DNA of 47,933 nucleotides from an uncultured Gammaproteobacteria bacterium (GTDB taxonomy: Bacteria > Patescibacteriota > Microgenomatia > Daviesbacterales > UBA10151): assembly GCA_964362195.1 (NCBI GenBank), contig CAYICZ010000004.1, positions 1-47,933 of the forward strand, in the 5' to 3' direction. Each line of letters starts with the position of its first letter. Positions within the stretch are counted from its first letter, which is position 1. Shown here in pieces: positions 5,421 to 31,376 of the stretch. A program made the translations under genes and the position numbers. The notes beneath the pieces were generated by a model, which had not been told where the DNA came from, ran no database searches, and worked only from the letters and a program-made list of their open reading frames with translations.

Positions 5421-6179
5421 ATGGTGCAGTTAGAATTAGATATTAGATTTCCAACAGATCGTAGCGATGAAGAAACCGTTTTTTATAGGAGCAGGATTTT
5501 AAGAGAATTTAAACAAGGGCAAAGAAGCAATTCCAAAAATTTTCAGACTTTCTCTTTTGAAGAAGCTATCTTAAAATTTTCCGCAAAAACTAACCTTTAT
5601 TTTAAAGAATTAAGTGATAATAGTGGAGATGATATTGATCAGTGGGTTGCCAGAGCTTTAGGTAAGGCCTTACCTTATTTTGCAGGTAAAAAGGGAAATT
5701 TTAGAAGCTTAGGGCATTTCTGGAAAACTTATTATGAAGATATAATTTATCATTTAGCTGTAGATAGGCACCGTTTAATAGTAGGACGGCAACATGAAAC
5801 TATACTTCCTTTTCCATCCAAAGAGGTTAGAGAACAGAGGCGAATTGGTTTTCAGCCACCCTTATTAAGAGAAGCTAGGGTAAATTTGGCAGGTCATGAT
5901 CTAAGCAAACAATTCCTGGCTGATTTACGAAACCCCAGAGGGGTTTTATTTGGTAAAGAAATTATTGGTTTAAACCCTGATTATGTTGTTGGGTTAGATA
6001 AACATAGAAAGAGAGCTTTAATTTTAAAATCTTTAAACCCTAGACTCTCGAGTAAAGAAATTGCGAAAATTTTGGAGGATGAAGGGTTTGGGACATTTGC
6101 AGATTCTGCAGTGAGAGTCTGGTTTAAAAGAGCTAAAGATCATCAGAGTACCGGGCTACTTACTACACAAGCTGTTTAA
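5421..6179 (+). CDS. Orphan ECF sigma factor-like protein
   Basis: C-terminal LDKHRKRALIL...LSSKEIAKIL...SAVRVWFKRAK resembles ECF region 4; promoter TTGATA-17-TATGAT-8-ATG. Confidence 0.55.
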   Translation: MVQLELDIRFPTDRSDEETVFYRSRILREFKQGQRSNSKNFQTFSFEEAILKFSAKTNLYFKELSDNSGDDIDQWVARALGKALPYFAGKKGNFRSLGHFWKTYYEDIIYHLAVDRHRLIVGRQHETILPFPSKEVREQRRIGFQPPLLREARVNLAGHDLSKQFLADLRNPRGVLFGKEIIGLNPDYVVGLDKHRKRALILKSLNPRLSSKEIAKILEDEGFGTFADSAVRVWFKRAKDHQSTGLLTTQAV

Positions 6180-6213: not shown

Positions 6214-7257
6214 TTAGGCAGCTTCAGCTAAATTTTCCAAATCCGGGAGGATAGGTTCCGAGATACCACTAACTTTTCTCCAGAAATACTGTTCTACATC
6301 CCAAATATAAACTGTTTCCGGTTTAAGACCATAAGTTTCAATCAGCCCTCTTTGGGCTTTGCCTGCTTCATAAGGATAGACCGCCCCCATTTTGTTATCT
6401 GTCCAGGGAAACATCTGCAGTTCCGGTACCTTTACTCCTTTGCCAAAAACTCTGCACAGAGAAGCTAAAGCCTGGATAACTGACCAGGGTGGCATTGCTT
6501 TATCAGCCTGGTTGTAGATATTTATACCCAAGATGTCGCTATTTTCGATCACATGCAAAATTAGTTCAGGGGTATCAAACGGGATGTTTTGTAGGATCGG
6601 GCGGCGGTAAGGGTCCAGTGATCTGACCATTTGTACCTCCTGAAGATTGAATTCTGGCGAAACATAGCGGTAATTGGTTAGCGGCAATCTTTGGGAGAAA
6701 GCTTCATTTTCCACCTGGATGGAGGTGATCTCTCTGATCGGGAGGAAACGTTCGGAAACGTCTGTTAATAATTTAAAAACCAGATCTCTAAACTCCGGAT
6801 CAGTATCAATTTGACCGGGATGTTTCAAATAAGGAAATTTTTCCTCCAGATCTTTTGGTACATGCACCTCTGGCCACCAAATGGTTTTTACCCCCATCTG
6901 TAAGGCAATACGCTTACCTTTTTTAATAGCTTCATTAATACAGAAATCTATTGTAGAATAATCGGCTTTGCCGTTGTAACCGTAGGCCACATCAAAAGGT
7001 ACGGCAATTCTAACGTTTCCAAAGGGTAAAGCAAGTATGTCGTTAATAGTCTGACGAAAGTTTAATCCTAACCAATTAATTCTTTTAGGACTAAGATTTA
7101 CCCCCATTTGATCAGGTGATAATTTTAAGCTGGTTTGGGTCGTTTCTTGAGGTTGATCATTTAGTCCCAGGCCTACTTCGGCAGTCAATAAAAGAGCAGC
7201 CATGCCTTTTAAAAAATCACGTCTGGTAGTCTGACTTTCTTTCGGTTCGATAGTCAT
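6214..7257 (-). CDS. Putative clan GH-A glycoside hydrolase-like protein with twin-arginine-like N-terminus
   Basis: TRRDFLK followed by a hydrophobic helix; VRIAVPF, QVENE (acid/base-like), VPELQ (nucleophile-like). Confidence 0.6.
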   Translation of the reverse strand: MTIEPKESQTTRRDFLKGMAALLLTAEVGLGLNDQPQETTQTSLKLSPDQMGVNLSPKRINWLGLNFRQTINDILALPFGNVRIAVPFDVAYGYNGKADYSTIDFCINEAIKKGKRIALQMGVKTIWWPEVHVPKDLEEKFPYLKHPGQIDTDPEFRDLVFKLLTDVSERFLPIREITSIQVENEAFSQRLPLTNYRYVSPEFNLQEVQMVRSLDPYRRPILQNIPFDTPELILHVIENSDILGINIYNQADKAMPPWSVIQALASLCRVFGKGVKVPELQMFPWTDNKMGAVYPYEAGKAQRGLIETYGLKPETVYIWDVEQYFWRKVSGISEPILPDLENLAEAA

Positions 7258-8171
7258 TTATTTGTTGATTTTAGGGGAAAATCCGGGTAGCCGTTCAGGA
7301 AATCTTTTAAAGATATAGCTTTTTTGCCTTCCATTTGCAACATATTTCCTGGTAGGAATTTAACTATGCGGGCTTGCCCGCTGGAGCCCGAAGGGCGAAA
7401 GCGGGTCCAAACCCCCGGCCAGGGGTAATATGCCCGAATCATTCTGTTTAATTTTTGTGGATCAGGTTGGTTATCAATGGGGAAGTAGCCACTTTCTCTG
7501 GTTAATTTATCACAAAATGTAGCGATCGCATCATTTTGTTTTTTCAAAGTTATCTTTCCTGCAGCAAAATCCTCAATAATTTTGGGTAAAACCTCAGCCG
7601 CTTGCTGAAACATTTTTTTACTCAAAGTATCAAAATTATCTTCATTAAAGAGCTCTAAAGTATCTTGATAAATAATGGGTCCATGATCCACTTCCTCATC
7701 CATTTTTATGATAGTTATTCCGGTTTCGCTGTCTCCATTTAATATAGCTTGCTGAATAGGTGAAGGACCTCTGTATTTGGGTAAGAGTGATGGGTGAACA
7801 TTCAAGCTTCCGAATTTTGGAATGTTTAAGATAAATTTTGGAATAATTTTGCCGAAAGAAGCAACTACAAATAGATCAGGCTTGAAATTTGAGATTTGGG
7901 ATTGGAAATTTTCATCCAGCTTTCCGGAAGTAAATATTGGTCCTTTGAAATAATTAGCTACAGCAGAATCTGAAGCAGTAACCACTGCCACAACCTCAAA
8001 ATTATCTTCCAGCGCCTGCAAGATAGGAATAACAAAAAGATCACTTCCAAAAAAGATAACTTTAATTTCGTTTAGTTTGATCTTTCCTAAATATTTTTCA
8101 ACCTCTTTCATATAAACCGGGATGATTTCTAAAGTAGAAAGGGGGACTTGTGGATGCTGCAGCTTTATCAT
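7254..8171 (-). CDS. fmt: Methionyl-tRNA formyltransferase
   Basis: IFFGS, LNVHPSLLPKYRGPSPIQ, VDHGPI, IRAYYPWPG; adjacent to def. Confidence 0.95.
   Translation of the reverse strand: MIKLQHPQVPLSTLEIIPVYMKEVEKYLGKIKLNEIKVIFFGSDLFVIPILQALEDNFEVVAVVTASDSAVANYFKGPIFTSGKLDENFQSQISNFKPDLFVVASFGKIIPKFILNIPKFGSLNVHPSLLPKYRGPSPIQQAILNGDSETGITIIKMDEEVDHGPIIYQDTLELFNEDNFDTLSKKMFQQAAEVLPKIIEDFAAGKITLKKQNDAIATFCDKLTRESGYFPIDNQPDPQKLNRMIRAYYPWPGVWTRFRPSGSSGQARIVKFLPGNMLQMEGKKAISLKDFLNGYPDFPLKSTNK
7368..7405. repeat. Palindromic element in frame in fmt (RFRPSGSSGQAR)
   Basis: CCCGCT-GGA-GCCC-GAA-GGGC-GAA-AGCGGG stem/internal loop/stem; GC-rich island in an AT-rich gene. Confidence 0.8.
7882..7909. repeat. 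Period-7 tract in fmt (NFQSQISNF)
   Basis: TTGAAAT TTGAGAT TTGGGAT TGGAAAT. Confidence 0.75.
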
Positions 8172-9076: not shown

Positions 9077-9340
9077 TTAACTTATTTTCTTAAGTTCTGA
9101 AAGCTTCCACATAAACACCTTAGCTTTGTTTTTGGCATTGTAGTAGCCTTTGGTATAATTTAGGGCCTCCTCTAAAATTTGTCTTGGCAACTCTTTGGCA
9201 AGCTTTATATATAAAGAATAGTGCTTGGTATCATCCAGCGATTCTGCCAGGAATACTCCATAAACCTGAAATTCTTTGCTCAAATTTTTCGGCCTGTCTT
9301 TAAATTTAGTCTCGCCGAGTATATTATTTAGTGACTTCAT
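9077..9340 (-). CDS. Hypothetical small helical protein
   Basis: 87-aa ORF overlapping the stop of the upstream ligase gene. Confidence 0.7.
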   Translation of the reverse strand: MKSLNNILGETKFKDRPKNLSKEFQVYGVFLAESLDDTKHYSLYIKLAKELPRQILEEALNYTKGYYNAKNKAKVFMWKLSELKKIS

Positions 9341-11306
9341 TGAGTTGCTGTTTGGCTTCCGGATAATCCGGCTTTAATTTTAGGGCTTGCTGCAGCACTT
9401 TTATTTCCTCATCTTTTTTAGTGCGCGAAGCGCGCGAGCTTTGCTCATTTTGGCTATCTAAAATTAAAGCTTTATTATAGTAAAGCTTGGGATCTGTTGG
9501 AGCTAAAGATATAGCCTGGTTTAGCGCATTTAAAGTTGTATCCAGATATTTGTTATCCAAAGAGGCCAATTCAAAATAGGTCCTGATAGCTGTTCTCCAA
9601 AAAGAGACATTTTTAGGGCTGTTCTTTAAAACCTGACCCATCTGGGCAACCGCTTCGTCTTTTAGCGCAGCAGATAAAGTTGCATCAGTTTGCTCTAAGG
9701 CTGCTGCAGCCTGGGCAGCGGAAAAAGCTAACTCAGATTGATAAAAAGGCTCGGAAGAATTCAGTTCCAAAGCAGAAGAAATGAAATTATATGCTTTGCC
9801 GGGATTTCCCAAATCAAAAGCTTTTTGGCCCTGGTTAAATAGTGTGTCAGCTGTCCAGATTTTAATAACAGAATATAAAAGATAAATGGTGAATAGTGCC
9901 ACAATAACTTTAGCAGCTTGGGCATAAATTGGCCTTTTGTAAATAAAACTAAACCCTAAACCCGATACCCTGAACCCTGTTGTGGCTTCTGTTGCCACAA
10001 AAACAAGTGCCGGGAAAAGATAGAAAAATACGGCAATAATCACAACTGAGAATAAAAAGAAGTTATAGATAAGAAAGGAAATATATGAAGAAAGCAAAGC
10101 GACTATAAAAATATTAGGCTTTGACCCCAGGATTTTTTTGAAGCTCCAATAAATAAATGAGCCTATTAAGAGTATATATGTGCCAAATCCCAAAATTCCT
10201 GTGTTGGCTAAATAATTTAAATATTCATTATGAGCCTTGTTATATAAAAAGTCCCACTCAGAAGTTTTATTATGCTCAGAGGGCCTATATTGATAATATG
10301 AATAAGCAAAAGTTTCCAAACCTGTTCCTAAAATAGGGTTATGTTTAAAGATTTCCAAAGCCCCTTTCCAGACAATAAAGCGGATTTGTCCGGATTCAGT
10401 TCCCCCATTTTCCAGCTGAGTTGTAGAAGTTTGAGGTAGTGCTATAGCAGGTCTGGTAGGTGAGGCAAACCTGGAAACAAGCCTGAGAGAGGTTAAGGCA
10501 GATCCAAATAATAAATTAACTGCCAAAAAAGAACCAAGCACTATTAAAATAATTTTGTTTTGTTTGAGTTTGGAAAATGCAAATCCTAAAAATACTGCCA
10601 TTCCTCCTATTAACCCTAATGTTGGACCTCTGGAGTAAGTGAAGGTAAAAGCCAGATAATAAATAATAAGTACCAAGTACCAAATTCCAAGTTCCAAATT
10701 CTTTTTAGCTGCTAAAAAGAAATATAAAGCAGGGAAGATAAGCATAGCAAGATATGCAGCCAGCCAATTGGGCTGGCCTAAGGTAGCAAATACCCTGGCC
10801 TGTACATCCTGTACCCAGCAGGAGGCATTAAACTCACTCCGTAAAATAATACAGGATAAGGAAACGCCAAAATGTTCAAAAATACCCCACAAAGAAATAA
10901 TAAATCCGGCAGCTAAACCAAATTTTAAAGTTGTTAAAACTTGTGTCTTGTTAATATTTGAAACAAAGGCCCAGTAAAGTAATAGATAAGAGATAATAGA
11001 TAATAATCCTCCATTGGATCTGGAATAATATCCCCAAATGGAGGTATGGATATCTATGGAAAAAATAGTAGATAAAACATTTGCTCCTAAAAATAGTAAA
11101 AGAGGAATATCTAGCGGAGTACGTTTAATCGTTAATCGTTTATCGTTTATCGTTTTTAAAACCCAAGTTCCAATAATAAGAATAGTGATTCCGTAAGTAA
11201 GCAACATCTTGTTATATTCAAAAAGCTCGTAATTTAGCGAAGTCCAAAAAAGTGGAGTGAGGAAAAAGAGAAGATAGAAAGAGTAACTGATAATTTTATC
11301 TAACAT
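9324..11306 (-). CDS. O-antigen ligase (Wzy_C/O-OTase-like) family membrane protein with C-terminal TPR repeats
   Basis: Many TM helices; RVFATLGQPN, TYSRG, R..VWKGA, AHNEYL; TPR-like AISLAPTDP and ALKLKPDY. Confidence 0.88.
   Translation of the reverse strand: MLDKIISYSFYLLFFLTPLFWTSLNYELFEYNKMLLTYGITILIIGTWVLKTINDKRLTIKRTPLDIPLLLFLGANVLSTIFSIDIHTSIWGYYSRSNGGLLSIISYLLLYWAFVSNINKTQVLTTLKFGLAAGFIISLWGIFEHFGVSLSCIILRSEFNASCWVQDVQARVFATLGQPNWLAAYLAMLIFPALYFFLAAKKNLELGIWYLVLIIYYLAFTFTYSRGPTLGLIGGMAVFLGFAFSKLKQNKIILIVLGSFLAVNLLFGSALTSLRLVSRFASPTRPAIALPQTSTTQLENGGTESGQIRFIVWKGALEIFKHNPILGTGLETFAYSYYQYRPSEHNKTSEWDFLYNKAHNEYLNYLANTGILGFGTYILLIGSFIYWSFKKILGSKPNIFIVALLSSYISFLIYNFFLFSVVIIAVFFYLFPALVFVATEATTGFRVSGLGFSFIYKRPIYAQAAKVIVALFTIYLLYSVIKIWTADTLFNQGQKAFDLGNPGKAYNFISSALELNSSEPFYQSELAFSAAQAAAALEQTDATLSAALKDEAVAQMGQVLKNSPKNVSFWRTAIRTYFELASLDNKYLDTTLNALNQAISLAPTDPKLYYNKALILDSQNEQSSRASRTKKDEEIKVLQQALKLKPDYPEAKQQLNEVTK
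9421..9440. repeat. GCGC-GAA-GCGC mini-hairpin in frame (SSRASRT)
   Basis: GTGCGCGAAGCGCGCGAGCT interrupts a TPR helix pair. Confidence 0.6.
9946..9980. repeat. Period-7 tract in ligase gene (TGFRVSGLGFS)
   Basis: AAACTAA ACCCTAA ACCCGAT ACCCTGA ACCCTGT. Confidence 0.8.
10664..10701. repeat. Period-7 tract in ligase gene (NLELGIWYLVL)
   Basis: TAATAAG TACCAAG TACCAAA TTCCAAG TTCCAAA TTC. Confidence 0.8.
11122..11157. repeat. Period-7 tract in ligase gene (KTINDKRLTIK)
   Basis: CGTTAAT CGTTTAT CGTTTAT CGTTTTT; 11126-11154 is the exact reverse complement of 14488-14516. Confidence 0.9.
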
Positions 11307-11309
11307 AAA

Positions 11310-11389
11310 TAGGGTACAGCGACTAGGGTATAGGGTTTAGTAAGAAAAATCAACTATACCCTAACCTCTAGACCCTAAACCCTACCCTA
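11310..11389. repeat. Inverted pair of TAGGGTW / WACCCTA heptamer tracts in a divergent intergenic region
   Basis: TAGGGTA cagcgac TAGGGTA TAGGGTT TAG ... TACCCTA ACCTCTA GACCCTA AACCCTA CCCTA. Confidence 0.85.
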
Positions 11390-11404
11390 TGTTAAACTCC
11401 CATC

Positions 11405-12469
11405 ATGTTTGGTAAGATCTGGTCATATTTTTCACATGATATAGGAATAGATTTAGGTACTGTTAATACTCTTGTTTTAGTTAAAGGTAAAGGGATAGTA
11501 ATCAGGGAACCAACCGTGGTGGCACTTCATAAAAAAACTAGGCAGGTTTTGGCAATCGGGACAGAGGCCAAAAGAATGCTGGGCAGGACCCCTGCTGCAA
11601 TTGAGGCAGTGAGGCCTCTTCGAAACGGGGTAATTTCTGATTTTGATACAACAGAGGCCATGCTTAGATATTTTATTCATAAGGTTCACGAAAGTCCGGC
11701 AGGTTCCAAATGGTATTCTCTTCCAAAAATTCCAAAGCCAAGGATTGTTGTTGGTATTCCATCAGGAGTGACAGAGGTGGAAAGAAGGGCTGTTCAGGAT
11801 GCCTGTTTATCTGCCGGAGCCAGGGAGGCATATTTAATTGAAGAGCCAATGGCTGCGGCAATCGGGGCCAAACTGCCGGTTGAAGATCCGGAAGGAGTCA
11901 TGATTGTAGATATTGGTGGAGGTACATGCGAAATTGCTATTATTTCCTTAGGAGGAATGGTAATAAACAGATCAATCAGGGTGGCCGGGGACGGGATGGA
12001 TGAAGCGATTGTAAACTATATGCGGACCAGGTATGGCATGCTGATTGGTGAGCGGACAGCCGAAGAGGTCAAAATGGAAATAGGTTCGGCATATCCTGTG
12101 GGCAAAGATGATTTGGCAACTGTGGTGCGGGGCAGGGACCTATCAACAGGTCTGCCTAAATCCTTAAAATTAAGCGCATCAGAAATCAGGGAGGCATTAA
12201 CACCAATAATTTCCGAGATAATAGGGGCAATTCAGGAAGTTTTAGAAGAAACTCCGCCGGAACTTTTAACAGATATAGTTGAGCGGGGGATATTTTTGAC
12301 AGGAGGAGGGGCTTTAATTTCTGGTTTGGATAAAAAAATTGCCGAGGAAACAAAACTGCCGGTTTATATTGCAGATGATCCGCTGACCACAGTTGTCAGA
12401 GGCTGTGGGGAAGTCTTAAATAATCTGGATTTACTATCTAAAGTAAGGGTAACCGGCGGATTAAGATAA
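11405..12469 (+). CDS. mreB: Rod shape-determining protein MreB
   Basis: IGIDLGT, EPMAAAIGA, VDIGGGT, LTGGGAL. Confidence 0.97.
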   Translation: MFGKIWSYFSHDIGIDLGTVNTLVLVKGKGIVIREPTVVALHKKTRQVLAIGTEAKRMLGRTPAAIEAVRPLRNGVISDFDTTEAMLRYFIHKVHESPAGSKWYSLPKIPKPRIVVGIPSGVTEVERRAVQDACLSAGAREAYLIEEPMAAAIGAKLPVEDPEGVMIVDIGGGTCEIAIISLGGMVINRSIRVAGDGMDEAIVNYMRTRYGMLIGERTAEEVKMEIGSAYPVGKDDLATVVRGRDLSTGLPKSLKLSASEIREALTPIISEIIGAIQEVLEETPPELLTDIVERGIFLTGGGALISGLDKKIAEETKLPVYIADDPLTTVVRGCGEVLNNLDLLSKVRVTGGLR

Positions 12470-13104
12470 TGAAAAAAGCTGTCCTGTTTGATATTGATGG
12501 AGTTTTGATTGATTCTTGGGATTTTGTCTTTGTGGCAGTTAAACATGCGCTAAAAAAGCCAGGTCACACTATTTCTGAGGAAGTAATAGTAAGCGCTATG
12601 GGAGGAAGGGCCCTTCTGGATTTTTATAAATTTTTGCTTCCAAAAGAAGATTATAAACTGATTGCCAAAAGCCACCAAAAATACCAGCAGGATAAATTTG
12701 ATTTGGGGAAACCATTTCCAAATGCCAAAAAGATTTTAAAAAAGTTAAAGTCCCAGGGATTTTTAATGGCTGCCATAAGTAATAGGACTAAAATAAGTTT
12801 AAAAACAACTTTGGATAGGGCAGAATTTTCCCCGTTCTTTGATATTGTTTTATCTGCAGAGGATGTTTTAAACCCCAAGCCTCACCCTGAGCATGTTTTG
12901 GCTGCATTAACTTATTTAAAAGTAAAACCCGCAAACTCATTTATGATCGGGGATACAAAAGATGATATTTTGGCAGGAAAATCTGCCAAGGTTAAAACAA
13001 TCGGAGTAACCTATGGCTTTGCCGGAAAAACAATTACTGACCATAATCCGGATTTTGTAATTGATGATTTGGAAGAATTAATAAAAGTGTTAAGATACAC
13101 CTAA
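12469..13104 (+). CDS. HAD-IA hydrolase (PpaX/Gph-like)
   Basis: FDIDGVL, ISN, KPHP, GDTKDD motifs. Confidence 0.9.
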   Translation: MKKAVLFDIDGVLIDSWDFVFVAVKHALKKPGHTISEEVIVSAMGGRALLDFYKFLLPKEDYKLIAKSHQKYQQDKFDLGKPFPNAKKILKKLKSQGFLMAAISNRTKISLKTTLDRAEFSPFFDIVLSAEDVLNPKPHPEHVLAALTYLKVKPANSFMIGDTKDDILAGKSAKVKTIGVTYGFAGKTITDHNPDFVIDDLEELIKVLRYT

Positions 13105-13130
13105 TGTTAAAGATACCTTTCTACGATCCA
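13104..13130 (+). pseudogene. Stranded former 5' end of pyrD (MLKIPFYDP)
   Basis: ATG TTA AAG ATA CCT TTC TAC GAT CCA versus pyrD ATG CTT AAA ACA CCC TTT TAC GAT CCG (13568-13594); overlaps the HAD stop (TAATG) and has its own TGnTAAGAT. Confidence 0.85.
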
Positions 13131-13216
13131 TTAGATTTTTAGTTTATCTTTTGCCAATTTAATGGTTTGATCTTGAAAGAATTTTTTGACCTTTTCCCAG
13201 GAAACAGAAGTAACAT
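13131..13216 (-). pseudogene. Internally deleted remnant of a probable AbiEii-type nucleotidyltransferase toxin
   Basis: ATG directly after the DUF6922-like stop, then out-of-frame VSWEKVKKFFQDQTIKLAKDKLKI*, resembling the C-terminus of such toxins as I recall them. Confidence 0.55.
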
Positions 13217-13525
13217 TTAGTAAGGCCAGAGTCGCATCGGTGGATTTGGGAATCCCTTTTTAAAATACATTATCTCTCGCTTGGGCATCTTAAAAAATTT
13301 ACCCCAGTATGTTGCGGCCCGTTTTGATAATCCGCGGCGATCTCGAAGAGTTTGTTTAATTATCTCCTCATCGAAATTTCTGAAGAGCCACTTAGTAGCT
13401 CGCTCATTTCCGAAGTTTAGGATTCTTTCGATAATGTAGTTAGGGTGGGTTTTCTTTAGATCTATTTTATTAAAATCTACGTCCCAAAAATAATGTTCTA
13501 AGAAAATTGGAAGCCTTTTCTGCAT
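13217..13525 (-). CDS. DUF6922-like protein (putative antitoxin partner)
   Basis: LEHYFWDVDFNKIDL, YIIERILNFGN, WL, LS.R...YW. Confidence 0.75.
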   Translation of the reverse strand: MQKRLPIFLEHYFWDVDFNKIDLKKTHPNYIIERILNFGNERATKWLFRNFDEEIIKQTLRDRRGLSKRAATYWGKFFKMPKREIMYFKKGFPNPPMRLWPY

Positions 13526-13567
13526 ACTTATATTTTAGCTTAATTTAAGGTAGAATTACAGGTGAAA

Positions 13568-14650
13568 ATGCTTAAAACACCCTTTTACGATCCGAATAAG
13601 AGTTATGAGGAAAATTATGATCAGGGGCCGTTTGGGGCATTTGCAGACGGAGTTGATTTAAGGACAGACGAAGAACCAAAATATGAATTTTTAGGTTTTA
13701 AGATTAATACCCCTTTTGGAATTCCCTCCGGTCCTTTAGTTAATTCTAAATTCTGTAAAGCCGCTTTTGAAAAAGGATTTAATGTAATTCATTATAAAAC
13801 CAGAAGATCTGGTGAGTTTCCCTGCAACCAATTTCCTAATGTTTTATTTGTAGAAACTGACGGGGATTTAACTTTAGAAAAAGCAAAAAAATCTCTTAAA
13901 GGGAGTAATATTGCTCCTGATGATTTATCAAAGATAAGTATTACCAACTCTTTCGGTAATCCATCACCTGATGCAAAAGTTTGGCAGGAGGATATGAAAA
14001 AGGCAGTGAAAGCAGCAGGATACGGTCAGCTGTTGATTGCTTCAGTTGTGGGAACAATTAAAGAGGGTTTTTCTGCCGAGGATTATTACGGCGATTTTGC
14101 GCTTGCTGCAAAATATGCAAAAGAGGCTGGAGTAAAAGTTATTGAAGTTAATTTATCCTGTCCGAATGTGGCATCAGAAGGTGTTTTATGCTACTCTGCT
14201 GATGCAGTAGAGGCTATCTGTAAAAAAGTAAGAGAAGTAATTGGTGATAAAGTTAAACTCCTGGCAAAAGTGGGTTATTTCTCCTCTGATCAACAAATTC
14301 TCCTGGAAGATATTATCAAAAGAATAAATTCATATATTGATGGAATTTCAGCAATTAATACAATTCCGGCTCCGGTGGTTGATGAAAATGGGAAGCAAGC
14401 TTTACCTGGAGAAGGAAGACTTTCAGCAGGGATTTGTGGAGCAGGGATTAAATGGGCAGGGCTGGATATGGTTAGGAGATTGCGATTAACGATAAACGAT
14501 AAACGATTAACGATTATAGGAGTAGGTGGAGTGACAAAGCCTGAGGATTATTTTGAGTATATTAATGCCGGGGCTGATGTAGTCCAATCTGCAACAGGAG
14601 CTATGTGGAACCCTGAACTTGCTCAAGAAATCAAACAACTGGCGAAATAA
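13568..14650 (+). CDS. pyrD: Dihydroorotate dehydrogenase-like FMN enzyme
   Basis: YKT, EVNLSCPN, LAK, AINT, IIGVGGV, GADVVQ; convergent with pyrCEF; alternative GTG start at 13562. Confidence 0.85.
   Translation: MLKTPFYDPNKSYEENYDQGPFGAFADGVDLRTDEEPKYEFLGFKINTPFGIPSGPLVNSKFCKAAFEKGFNVIHYKTRRSGEFPCNQFPNVLFVETDGDLTLEKAKKSLKGSNIAPDDLSKISITNSFGNPSPDAKVWQEDMKKAVKAAGYGQLLIASVVGTIKEGFSAEDYYGDFALAAKYAKEAGVKVIEVNLSCPNVASEGVLCYSADAVEAICKKVREVIGDKVKLLAKVGYFSSDQQILLEDIIKRINSYIDGISAINTIPAPVVDENGKQALPGEGRLSAGICGAGIKWAGLDMVRRLRLTINDKRLTIIGVGGVTKPEDYFEYINAGADVVQSATGAMWNPELAQEIKQLAK
14483..14517. repeat. Period-7 tract in pyrD (RLTINDKRLTI)
   Basis: CGATTAA CGATAAA CGATAAA CGATTAA CGATTAT. Confidence 0.9.
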
Positions 14651-15686
14651 TTCTTCCTGAACCTTTTTCTGCTAAAATTTGACCGTTTTCAAAAACTTTT
14701 TCTCCTCTTAAATAAACTGTTTTTACTTTACCCACTACTTTTTTGCCCTCAAAAGGGGACCACTTGCACTTTGTGTAGAAGGGAATAGGGTTTAGGGTAT
14801 AGGGTTTAGTATCATCAACTTCTATATAAGTATTTTCATCAGTTGGAATGTTAAAAATCCTTTTAGGGTTGTCAAATAAAAGCCTTTTAATATCATCTAT
14901 AGTAAGTTTGTCTTCGCTAACTGCTGTTAATAAAAGTGGAAGAGTTGTCTCAAGTCCGGGTACTCCAAATGGAGGATTTTCACTCTCCTTTTCTGCTTTA
15001 GTATGTGGCGCATGGTCAGATTCAATAAGGTCTATGGAATCTAGGTTACTCCATAGAAAATCCTGGTCAGCTTGGGTTTTTAAAAATGGCTTCATTCTGC
15101 CATATGGCCCAAGTTTTTGGCCATCTATGTCTGTTAGAAAAAGATGGTGGGGAGTAACTCCACAAGTTAAAGGTAGCCCCTCTTTTTTTGCAGTCATAAT
15201 TTGGGACAATTCTTCTTTGGATGAAACATGACAAATATGGGTTTTCTTGTTGGTGGACTTAATAATTTTTAAAGCCATAGGCAAAGTTTTCCCTTCACAA
15301 TGTAAAAGAATTGGCTGACTTTCTGGCCAAGCTTCATAAATGGCCCTCAATTTTTCTTCATCAATTAAAAAATTTCCGGTTGTAACATTTAAATAAAGTT
15401 TTATTCCAAAGACTTGACTTGCCACTTTAGGAAATTCTTCTAAATTATCACCCAAAGATCCAAAGTAAAAACCTATATCGCAAACAGTATTTTTTCTGGC
15501 CAGTTCCATTTTTTGTTGGAGTAGCTCTTGGGTGATTATGGGCACTTTATTGTTGGGCATATCCAAAACAGTAGCAAATCCTCCGGCTAGCGCAGCAGAG
15601 GTGCCGGTTAAAAAATCCTCCTTTTCCTCCTGTCCCGGAGTCCGAAGGTGTACATGGATATCAATTAGACCGGGTAAAGTAATCAT
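14631..15686 (-). CDS. pyrC: Dihydroorotase
   Basis: PGLIDIHVHLR, DMPN, HICHVS, VTPHHL, SDHAPH. Confidence 0.93.
   Translation of the reverse strand: MITLPGLIDIHVHLRTPGQEEKEDFLTGTSAALAGGFATVLDMPNNKVPIITQELLQQKMELARKNTVCDIGFYFGSLGDNLEEFPKVASQVFGIKLYLNVTTGNFLIDEEKLRAIYEAWPESQPILLHCEGKTLPMALKIIKSTNKKTHICHVSSKEELSQIMTAKKEGLPLTCGVTPHHLFLTDIDGQKLGPYGRMKPFLKTQADQDFLWSNLDSIDLIESDHAPHTKAEKESENPPFGVPGLETTLPLLLTAVSEDKLTIDDIKRLLFDNPKRIFNIPTDENTYIEVDDTKPYTLNPIPFYTKCKWSPFEGKKVVGKVKTVYLRGEKVFENGQILAEKGSGRIISPVV
14779..14811. repeat. Period-7 tract in pyrC (TKPYTLNPIP)
   Basis: AAGGGAA TAGGGTT TAGGGTA TAGGGTT TAGTA; 14793-14811 is identical to 11324-11342. Confidence 0.85.
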
Positions 15687-30426: not shown

Positions 30427-31376
30427 AAAAGCACGAAGAATACCAATATCTGGATCTATTAAAAGACATCATGAAAAATGGGGTAAACAAGCCTGTTTTT
30501 AATAATCCGGGGGTCCACATCAAATCTGTTTTTGGCAGGCAACTAAGGTTTGATTTATCAAAAGGTTTTCCTTTGCTTACAACCAAAAAAGTATTTTTGC
30601 GCGGAATTATTCATGAACTGCTTTGGTTTATAAAAGGGGATTCAAATATTAAATATCTGGTTGATTGTGACGTGCATATTTGGGATGAATGGGCGTATAA
30701 AGCTTACAAAGTGCAAAGTGCAAAGGGAAAAGTGAAAAGTTTAACACAGGAAGAATTTATACAAAAAATAAAACAGCTACCAACCAGTGATCCTTTTGTT
30801 AAAAATTGGGGGGATTTGGGAAATGTTTATGGAGTGCAGTGGAGAAAATGGAAAACATCTGATGGAAGGATAATTGATCAGCTGGCTTGGGCCATTAATG
30901 AGTTAAAAACCACCCCTTTTAGAAAATCAATTGTTGTTTCTGCCTGGAATCCGGAATTTATTTATGAGATGGCCTCACCTGGGAAATCCATGGCCCTGCC
31001 TCCCTGCCATACTCTTTTTCAATTTAATGTAAAGGCTGGCAGGTTATCACTGCAACTTTATCAGCGCTCTGCAGATACATTTTTAGGTGTTCCTTTCAAC
31101 ATAGCATCTTATGCTTTATTTACGCAGATGGTCGCTCAAGTGGTGGGATTTAAACCCGGAGAATTTGTCCATACATTTGGTGACGTACATATATATAGTA
31201 ATCATATGAGTCAGGTTAAAGAGCAATTAAAGAGGGTTCCAAGAAAATTTCCAAAAATGAAAATTAATCCTAAGATAAAAAATATTGATGATTTTAAACT
31301 GGAAGACTTTACCCTTGAGAACTACAATCCATATCCTCCTATTAAGGGAGAGGTGACAGTAGTAGGAGGATTTTGA
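30423..31376 (+). CDS. thyA: Thymidylate synthase
   Basis: [31 protein letters not shown]. Confidence 0.97.
30707..30741. repeat. Period-7 tract in thyA ([11 protein letters not shown])
   Basis: CAAAGTG CAAAGTG CAAAGGG AAAAGTG AAAAGTT. Confidence 0.85.

Follow-up and report, generated by a model that had tools for sequence, protein, structure and literature searches.

In-frame heptamer arrays in conserved genes of a Daviesbacterales bacterium and its relatives

We analysed a 47,933-nt stretch of DNA, hereafter the window (contig CAYICZ010000004.1, positions 1 to 47,933, assembly GCA_964362195.1). It comes from a bacterium deposited as an uncultured gammaproteobacterium and placed by GTDB in Patescibacteriota, Microgenomatia, Daviesbacterales, UBA10151. 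Two unrelated genes of the window, one encoding an O-antigen-ligase-like membrane protein (hereafter the ligase gene) and the other dihydroorotate dehydrogenase (pyrD), contain an identical 29-mer within tandem arrays of the heptamer CGATWAA. These 29-mers probably are long-established members of a lineage-wide class of in-frame heptamer arrays rather than recent copies. Such arrays would arise by slippage or conversion in a 7-nt register without MutS, under selection on frame and stop codons. The order of the A/T variants in the 29-mers is dictated by stop-codon avoidance together with two synonymous sites. Both arrays are older than the split from other genera: the one in the ligase gene occurs in five genera, and the one in pyrD is common to the genome of the window (G000) and a relative, G018. 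Other G numbers below also denote relatives.

Identity and unit order of the 29-mers

Exact copies of the 29-mer occupy positions 11126-11154 on the reverse strand and 14488-14516 on the forward strand. No further matches with up to three mismatches were observed in the window, nor in 100 dinucleotide shuffles of it, and the whole assembly (38 contigs, 814,899 nt, 37% G+C) contains these two copies only. Both lie on the coding strand of long open reading frames (ORFs) and are translated as TINDKRLTI. Sequence search and ORF listing thus bear out the original prediction of an exact 29-mer read in the same frame into the same peptide at both loci. Tandem Repeats Finder (TRF) reports period-7 arrays at both sites, with 88% (ligase) and 92% (pyrD) matches. 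Their units stand head to tail, as in heptanucleotide long simple sequence repeats.

That one of the two loci could be an assembly artefact, a worry expressed in the original prediction, is hardly credible. Logan contigs of a public run labelled as a groundwater metagenome (X1) span both arrays with 0 gaps; one differing letter is seen in record 2 (10960-11327) and 0 in record 8 (14320-14937). This run is possibly the source sample of the window, and it would then represent a second assembly and not an independent sample. Both reading frames continue into conserved sequence, and the same arrays are found in independently assembled genomes of other genera. On the other hand, contigs of run X2 end in or beside the arrays. 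Contigs of X2 and of a third run, X3, end at or near arrays and leave some bins without cover, and nothing is drawn from that.

The identical order of variant units had been taken as a sign of a shared template or donor. This argument fails when the reading phases are considered. Since seven is not a multiple of three, consecutive units are read in all three phases. In the phase CGA TWA the variable position must be T, otherwise CGA TAA is formed. In the phase GAT WAA it must be A, otherwise GAT TAA is formed. In the third phase, ACG ATW AAC, it is free, as ATA and ATT both encode isoleucine. Consequently, TINDKRL is the cyclic peptide of any CGATWAA array that is read on this strand without a stop. 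Within the 29-mer, stop avoidance forces two of the four units and the other two are synonymous isoleucine sites, so that four orderings are possible in total. The original prediction had conceded that convergence would be trivial if almost a single stop-free ordering existed. The actual situation comes close to this, with four orderings and one peptide.

Given the ATA:ATT usage of 0.35 : 0.65 in G000, the probability is 0.30 that two pure arrays of equal phase coincide at both free sites. In a simulation with random phase and length, 11% of 4000 pairs shared at least 29 nt (0.11). For comparison, 37 CGATWAA arrays from G000 and the loci of 29 relatives were sorted by their flanks into 26 groups. 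Of the 325 pairs of groups, four have at least 29 nt in common; they involve the ligase, pyrD and G049-gene arrays and one further pair (L038/L054). The same 29-32-mer is found in three different genes, the ligase gene, pyrD, and a gene of G049 (L036). Four such pairs are about what the simulated rate gives for some ten pure arrays, by our estimate rather than by computation. The non-consensus variants shared by L038 and L054 over 29 nt were considered as proof of copying. However, both variants are common, and thus this case is not decisive. Before a donor is inferred from identical oligomers of repeat origin in unrelated genes, a constraint calculation of this kind is needed.

Heptamer arrays in the genome and its relatives

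Among the tandem repeats of G000 and its closest relatives, period-7 arrays of about 30 nt predominate. Period 7 accounts for 10 of the 34 TRF rows in the window. In the whole genome at score 30 there are 101 rows with period 7, against 39 with period 6 and 42 with period 8. At scores of at least 46, 24 period-7 arrays remain, against 2, 0 and 3 for periods 6, 8 and 9. A separate detector covering periods 4 to 15 yields 16 arrays of period 7, 11 of period 14 and 0-2 for each other period, and none in three codon-block shuffles. Both the shuffles and the neighbouring periods thus demonstrate the excess over chance by which heptanucleotide long simple repeats are recognised.

The arrays are spaced every 8-16 kb, and 45 of the 52 with TRF score 36 lie inside ORFs. 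The gene calls used here are crude (greedy ORFs of at least 80 amino acids) and cover 92% of the genome, a coding fraction of 0.92. Among the host genes are those for thymidylate synthase and an M24-type peptidase and a dihydroorotase-like gene. In all 12 near-perfect ORF arrays the unit is stop-free in tandem, and all 17 arrays with stop-containing units are imperfect, a relationship that is partly true by construction. Array lengths are quantised. Among perfect period-7 runs in G000, eight have 23-25 matches and none has 20-22 or at least 26. In the pooled DNA examined from G000 and its relatives, 88 of 145 arrays are 28-34 nt long, and five are exactly 52 nt. We read these length modes as a seed extended by three or six units; no other number of added units preserves the frame. 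The remaining 2-4 nt would represent microhomology from which slippage began.

Most units occur once or twice among the 101 rows of G000; the recurrent ones are the CTAWACC type (16 rows) and CGATWAA (7 rows). Dozens of other heptamers form arrays, so that this genome differs from those with TAACTGA-type repeats, where other heptamers rarely repeat. On the other hand, CGATWAA resembles the TAACTGA type in that the same heptamer recurs at many loci with no enrichment of single copies. Outside arrays, neither CGATTAA nor CGATAAA is enriched in the way expected of an uptake or binding motif (z = 1.0 and -1.6). The mostly intergenic location upstream of gene starts, typical of TAACTGA repeats, is not observed. 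Of 37 CGATWAA arrays, 30 lie in open frames of at least 100 amino acids on the CGATWAA strand, four in such frames on the other strand, and three in no such frame. The non-CGATWAA strand is easier to keep stop-free, yet only those four are read there. The relative positions of CGATWAA arrays within genes are 0.08, 0.85 and 0.57.

The codons of the CGATWAA arrays are rare ones: ACG and CGA each make up 5% of the codons for their amino acid in G000, and AAC 23%. The retention of these codons places the signal at the level of DNA and not of protein. It is very improbable, therefore, that TINDKRL is a selected peptide motif and the identity of the DNA its by-product. The peptide does occur in many proteins, and in PyrD it suits the structure that it replaced (helix end, loop and strand start, modelled by AlphaFold with a per-residue confidence, pLDDT, of about 90). 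However, a selected peptide repeat would show a periodicity of 21 nt and not 7 nt, and would use common codons, whereas the rare codons persist throughout. Codon usage alone brings convergence at the protein level close to refutation.

The distribution of the arrays is restricted to certain lineages. The CGATWAA pattern (nearly four units with at most three mismatches) was found in 31 of 60 genomes of the same family and in one of 40 genomes from other families of the class. The reversed pattern, used as a control, matched 12 of 101 genomes, mostly those with no forward matches. CTAWACC arrays were observed in 40 of 60 family genomes and in none of the 40 outside. The presence of CGATWAA tracks relatedness, which was measured by identity to an 834-aa protein of the window and crossed by hand with the pattern matches. 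The carriers number 20 of 22 genomes at 66% identity or more to the G000 protein, 3 of 9 at 56-61%, 8 of 26 at 55% or less, and none of the three with no match to it. The excess of period 7 in general is likewise confined to some lineages. Period-7 arrays with TRF scores of at least 36 number 11 in 80 kb of G011, 13 in 47 kb of G018 and 10 in 60 kb of G006, all three being syntenic regions from the same family. Two other members of the family, G024 and G005, have no CGATWAA matches and contain 0 and 1 array per 100 kb, respectively. In other families, 100 kb of G026 contain seven arrays and 100 kb of G034 contain one. The array-rich genomes are G018, G011, G006, G047 and G065, and the array-poor ones are G005 and G024.

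The ligase array at 11122-11155 occurs at the same site in G011, G018 and G053, where it encodes LKTINDKRLT, and in diverged form in G006; all these genomes belong to different genera. The protein is about 66-67% identical to that of G000 in the three aligned relatives (G011, G018, G006). The length of the array is the same in G000, G011, G018 and G006. In G006, TC replaces CG in every unit, a concerted change. At identical residues within the array, codons coincide at 9 of 9 positions between G000 and G018 and at 8 of 9 between G000 and G011 and between G011 and G018; in the rest of the gene this identity is 43-50%. Reading of the protein sequence places the array in a hydrophilic stretch between the first two hydrophobic segments. 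The expectation that orthologs in sister genomes would lack the array is contradicted by these genomes, and also by G018, which shares the pyrD array.

The ligase gene holds four period-7 arrays (Table 1). At the alignment site of 9949..9978, the opposite strand of G006 carries a perfect array of the same unit family and G011 carries a TTCTCAC array; G018, the shortest, has none. At 10668..10697, perfect arrays of other units are found in G011 and G018, and a 57-nt array in G053, and the alignment contains no gaps. At 10980..11005, the G053 orthologue is flagged at the same peptide. Upstream of the gene, a near-identical counterpart of the array at 11354..11384 occupies the same intergenic place in G006. 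In G019 there is a 31-mer differing from it by 1 nt, with an inverted partner 13 nt away (L015, 122-196). Two inverted CTAWACC-type arrays separated by 9 nt were also observed outside the window, on contig C26 (6578-6641) beside an apparent tRNA gene end, and they could form a long hairpin.

Table 1. Genes and period-7 arrays around the two 29-mers, and the array in the thymidylate synthase gene. Positions are those of the window
Feature	Positions	Strand	Host or product	Basis and details
O-antigen-ligase-like membrane protein gene	9324..11306	-	C-terminal TPR repeats; 660 aa	Pfam Wzy_C (1.6e-19) and several TPR families
CCCTAWA-type array	9949..9978	-	ligase gene	TRF; read on the G-rich strand, GFRVSGLGFS
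TTGGWAC array (coding strand)	10668..10697	-	ligase gene, hydrophobic segment	TRF
TAATAGA array	10980..11005	-	ligase gene	TRF; 3.7 copies, LLSIISYLLLY
CGATWAA array	11122..11155	-	ligase (Wzy_C/TPR) gene	TRF; 4.7 copies, KTINDKRLTIK
CTAWACC-type array, 31 nt	11354..11384	+	divergent intergenic region, ligase gene/mreB	TRF
Dihydroorotate dehydrogenase gene (pyrD)	13562..14650	+	362 aa	Pfam DHO_dh (1.7e-23)
CGATWAA array	14483..14516	+	pyrD	TRF; 4.9 copies, RLTINDKRLTI
CTAWACC-type array	14786..14809	-	Amidohydro_1 (dihydroorotase-like) gene	TRF; 3.4 copies, TLNPIPF
CAAAGTG array	30707..30740	+	thymidylate synthase gene (thyA)	TRF; 4.9 copies

Alignment of 35 window genes with syntenic orthologues of G011, G018 and G006 yielded ten array sites. 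At five of them the array is an insertion relative to array-less orthologues. At three (the ligase loop, the ligase hydrophobic segment and thyA) arrays of related or different units are present in all or most genomes with no change in length. At the pyrD site ordinary sequence has been replaced by an array of equal length, and a further site falls within an N-terminus that aligns poorly. In the ligase gene there is one site where G000 and G006 have the same unit family on opposite strands, G011 has another unit, and G018 has none. Across genera the array length classes differ by 21 nt. At the thyA site, TRF finds arrays of related units in G018 (perfect), G006 and G011; the stricter detector flags G018 and G006, with G011 just under the cut-off. 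Between loci L029 and L035 all units differ, with CC against CG; this difference and the related units in four genera at thyA also speak for concerted change. In the M24-type peptidase ordinary sequence has given way to the array, and the length is almost unaltered. It is present in G047, G019 and G041 and absent from G018 and G007, which have similar identity.

The pyrD array is distributed patchily. Four of the best 120 homologues, out of 4685 with E <= 1e-40, have an array here, namely the protein of the window itself, P0007 (78% identity), and P0099 and P0115 (59%). Some of the homologues bear the source names Candidatus Daviesbacteria and Candidatus Microgenomates. The array is present in G018 (59% identity), as in P0007, and absent from G011 (80%). 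In G018 it has the same left boundary as in G000, and G018 avoids the stop with CAA at the codon that is AAA in G000. The array is not an insertion, since other orthologues carry unrelated sequence of the same length, G000 being two codons shorter. At this site the homologues vary in sequence and are fixed in length. In an AlphaFold model built from an alignment of 58 sequences (mean pLDDT 89.2), the array residues form the end of helix 292-308, the loop 309-314 and the start of strand 315-320, and the pLDDT of this block is about 89-90.

The 24 residues following the pyrD array match a distant array-bearing subclade best, at 21 of 24 positions, whereas the 27 closest homologues average 17 of 24, and three diagnostic residues following the array fit the same subclade. 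This hints at a short conversion tract between lineages. The protein as a whole looks mosaic: its first 300 residues are nearest to one subclade (about 80%), and the array with the next 24 residues fits a subclade that is 55-59% identical elsewhere. No recent recombination tract was observed around the array; the flanking synonymous sites are saturated, and codon identity at identical residues is no higher beside the array.

Several further observations concern the window itself. Weak period-7 rows are reported at 5430-5448 and 7882-7911 (scores 31 and 32). For 7254-8171, a TTCTCAC array in the G011 orthologue stands opposite an 8-residue gap in G006. With tblastn at 1e-10, the Amidohydro_1 gene beside pyrD (14631-15686) was not matched in the syntenic regions from G011, G018 and G006, although its neighbours were.

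Origin of the arrays

The underlying phenomenon is real, clade-wide and partly explained. We suggest that a DNA-level process in a 7-nt register, either slipped-strand synthesis or conversion between neighbouring units, may both make arrays and re-homogenise them, in a lineage with no detected MutS. Selection would purge products that shift the frame or create stops. As a result, the surviving arrays would differ by three units (21 nt) and would carry variant units exactly where a pure array gives a stop. Within such an array every position of the unit falls in turn on codon positions 1, 2 and 3 from one unit to the next, so that a synonymous change would become non-synonymous on spreading. 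Synonymous changes subject to conversion would then be erased or selected against, and occasional sweeps, of which G006 may be an example, would alter all units together. This coupling of the three phases, if it operates, would leave the array DNA more conserved than the flanking synonymous sites.

Genes for repair proteins were considered in this connection. There is no MutS_V match in G000, whose completeness by marker genes is 100, and 91 of the 101 genomes searched have no match either. Full-length MutS was found in four family genomes, G010, G062, G069 and G075, with 0, 0, 1 and 0 CGATWAA matches, respectively. Loss of MutS was rejected as the cause of the arrays, as the array-poor G005 and G024 also have no match; it is permissive at most. 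An origin by end joining was rejected as well, there being no Ku match in G000.

A number of observations weigh against slippage and conversion in place. Firstly, CGATWAA is found in up to 26 gene-site groups, it is a rare-codon unit, and its single copies are not enriched. Local slippage does not explain this recurrence, nor does it explain the patchy occurrence of carriers among homologues of similar identity. Secondly, the arrays of pyrD and the M24 peptidase replace sequence in place, a result not expected from slippage that adds three units. Thirdly, the same unit family stands on opposite strands at one ligase site in G000 and G006. Fourthly, intergenic arrays, which are free of frame, are also about 31 nt long, and there are only seven of them in G000. 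Moreover, no insertions, deletions or length variants are listed over 10500-15000 in the contigs of the three runs, which drop rare variants and have a depth of about 4-6. Finally, the absence of MutS, common to most of the genomes searched, fails to separate the array-rich from the array-poor ones.

As independent local slippage does not explain why a rare-codon heptamer recurs, a common source or a sequence-specific process may still be involved. One possible, if doubtful, alternative is copying from a donor. CGATWAA arrays, and perhaps CTAWACC arrays, would then be tiny mobile or conversion elements. About 30 nt, taken from an array already present or from a dedicated template, would overwrite a target, at times in exchange for as much host DNA, and the pyrD array would derive from a ligase-type array, or both from a common master. 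Recurrence of the same heptamer in so many gene-site groups and in 31 of 60 family genomes fits this explanation. So do the in-place arrays of pyrD and the peptidase with their patchy carriers, the match of the 24 residues past the pyrD array to a distant array-bearing subclade, the 29-32-mer common to the ligase gene, pyrD and the G049 gene, and the opposite orientations at one ligase site. However, the shared variant order has a chance of roughly 0.1-0.3, and four pairs sharing at least 29 nt are roughly expected by our own estimate. No flank or target motif is common to the ligase and pyrD loci, the synonymous sites flanking the pyrD array contain no recent recombination tract, and both arrays are older than the split from other genera. 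Arrays are also built from dozens of other units, often at one locus each, which argues for a process with no sequence specificity. The idea of a common source thus loses its argument from unit order and keeps the one from recurrence of a rare-codon heptamer at many gene sites. Features of small mobile elements, such as small dispersed repeats or miniature inverted-repeat transposable elements, are likewise mixed: the identity is within chance and no flank is shared, yet the arrays stand in place and are patchy.

No enzyme candidate for writing arrays emerged among the MutS_V, Ku and RVT_1 families examined in G000, which also counts against a donor. Two 337-aa RVT_1 ORFs, candidate reverse transcriptases, are located outside the window on contig C5 (8498-11093 and 43945-45342). 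One lies near a gene whose C-terminus resembles an adjacent short asparagine-rich ORF, and the other lies beside a small helical protein. Both loci resemble diversity-generating retroelements, to judge from their motifs. One of the RVT_1 ORFs adjoins the peptidase gene that bears a CGATWAA array; as arrays occur every 8-16 kb, this adjacency is treated as chance. The 29-mers themselves were rejected as the variable region of such an element. There are just two copies, they are identical, and the RVT_1 genes lie on another contig with apparent targets or accessory genes of their own.

It seems unlikely, on present evidence, that a subclade of Microgenomates (Daviesbacteria by the source names of homologues) possesses a sequence-specific "heptamer writer", by which arrays of about 30 nt, made of a few master units (CGATWAA, CTAWACC), would be templated, often overwriting coding DNA of equal length in place, and would spread among loci and, by short conversion tracts, among genomes. 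If true, this would represent a novel type of mobile or conversion element, very small and non-coding, by which essential proteins are remodelled.

We regard as improbable a role of the arrays as functional nucleic-acid elements, kept in DNA or mRNA through recognition by a protein such as a translational or nucleoid factor. Such a role agrees with the codon identity in the ligase array (9 of 9 and 8 of 9, against 43-50% elsewhere in the gene), and with conservation of the 31-nt CTAWACC array between the ligase gene and mreB in G000 and G006. It also agrees with the family specificity of both units (31/60 against 1/40 and 40/60 against 0/40) and with the bias of CGATWAA arrays towards one strand (30 of 37, against four on the other). 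However, CGATWAA arrays occupy arbitrary positions within genes, the unit in G006 changed wholesale and the array persisted, and many unrelated units behave alike. Homogenisation coupling the three phases accounts for the conservation of DNA with no binding involved. CTAWACC arrays were also considered as leaders just upstream of gene starts. An ORF start within 40 nt downstream is found for 5 of 14 such arrays, against 17% of random positions, and thus this prediction is weak.

Relation to known heptamer repeats

In most prokaryote genomes the most frequent long simple repeats are reportedly heptanucleotide ones, for which slippage of the polymerase has been proposed (Mrazek et al. 2007, as summarised in PMC4679880 and PMC4692102). 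The arrays described here are similar to those in these summaries: the 7-nt units are tandem and head to tail, period 7 is in excess, the repeats are lineage-restricted, and slippage in a 7-nt register is proposed. According to the same summaries, repeats whose units are multiples of three are the likeliest to occur in coding regions; here 45 of 52 period-7 arrays lie in ORFs, including those of pyrD, thyA and the peptidase. Unlike the repeats as summarised there, our arrays fall into length classes 21 nt apart and are retained at the same places in different genera.

TAACTGA direct repeats of Beggiatoaceae, some Cyanobacteria and Bacteroidetes have been proposed to be recognised by a protein, for instance a translational or nucleoid factor (MacGregor 2015, PMC4679880). 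As described there, one heptamer is repeated 2-6 times at many loci, single copies are not predictive, and the phylogeny is patchy. Some copies in ORFs are read on the stop-free strand as a peptide with a period of seven residues. Mobility was weighed there as well, with no mechanism emerging. In all these respects the CGATWAA arrays are alike. However, the TAACTGA sets are described in that source as mostly intergenic, few nucleotides upstream of starts, and peripheral when inside ORFs, whereas 30 of 37 CGATWAA arrays lie in ORFs and are mostly internal to conserved proteins. Also, many other heptamers form arrays in CGATWAA genomes, in contrast to the TAACTGA case as presented there.

GGGAATC and GGGGA(T/C)T heptamer repeats were described in Xanthomonas and Nostoc, with tandem heptanucleotides of Calothrix cited in the same work (Rehm et al. 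2015, PMC4692102). These are likewise genus-restricted dispersed heptamer arrays, sometimes in inverted pairs, as the CTAWACC arrays are here. On the other hand, they are presented there as G-rich, intergenic and candidate quadruplexes, whereas CGATWAA is AT-rich and coding. In Borg elements, tandem repeats also arise in ORFs that remain unbroken, add peptide segments and are genome-specific, but all ORF units there are divisible by three (PMC9879509). Here the unit is 7 nt long, and the frame is kept by copy changes in threes.

Contingency loci also have units in ORFs that are not a multiple of three, so that a change by one unit shifts the frame. The present arrays differ from them in being located in housekeeping enzymes and, in the ligase gene, in having constant length in G000, G011, G018 and G006. 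A phase-variable contingency locus was thus rejected, given this length constancy in four genomes, the lack of listed length variants and hosts such as pyrD and thyA. The small dispersed repeats of Nostoc described by Elhai et al. in 2008 are reportedly 21-27 nt long, are situated inside conserved sequences, and are said to be mobile while encoding nothing. This proposal is comparable to copying from a donor. They are also said to be defined sequences, several of them palindromic, and not tandem heptamers.

No literature on heptamer or tandem arrays in the Candidate Phyla Radiation, Microgenomates or Daviesbacteria was found in a search that left most subscription journals outside. Heptanucleotide repeats have long been noted and have remained unexplained, and they have so far been described mainly between genes. 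The system described here belongs to this known kind of repeat, in a form that is mainly intragenic, is kept in frame by 21-nt steps and is persistent across genera. The arrays sit within housekeeping enzymes of an ultra-small groundwater bacterium and persist at their sites across genera while their units change in concert. The presence of array-rich and array-poor genomes within one family permits a comparison. The arrays thus offer a natural system in which to study how new peptide segments arise and are maintained through a mutational process in a fixed 7-nt register, and in which the underlying polymerase-footprint idea could be tested.

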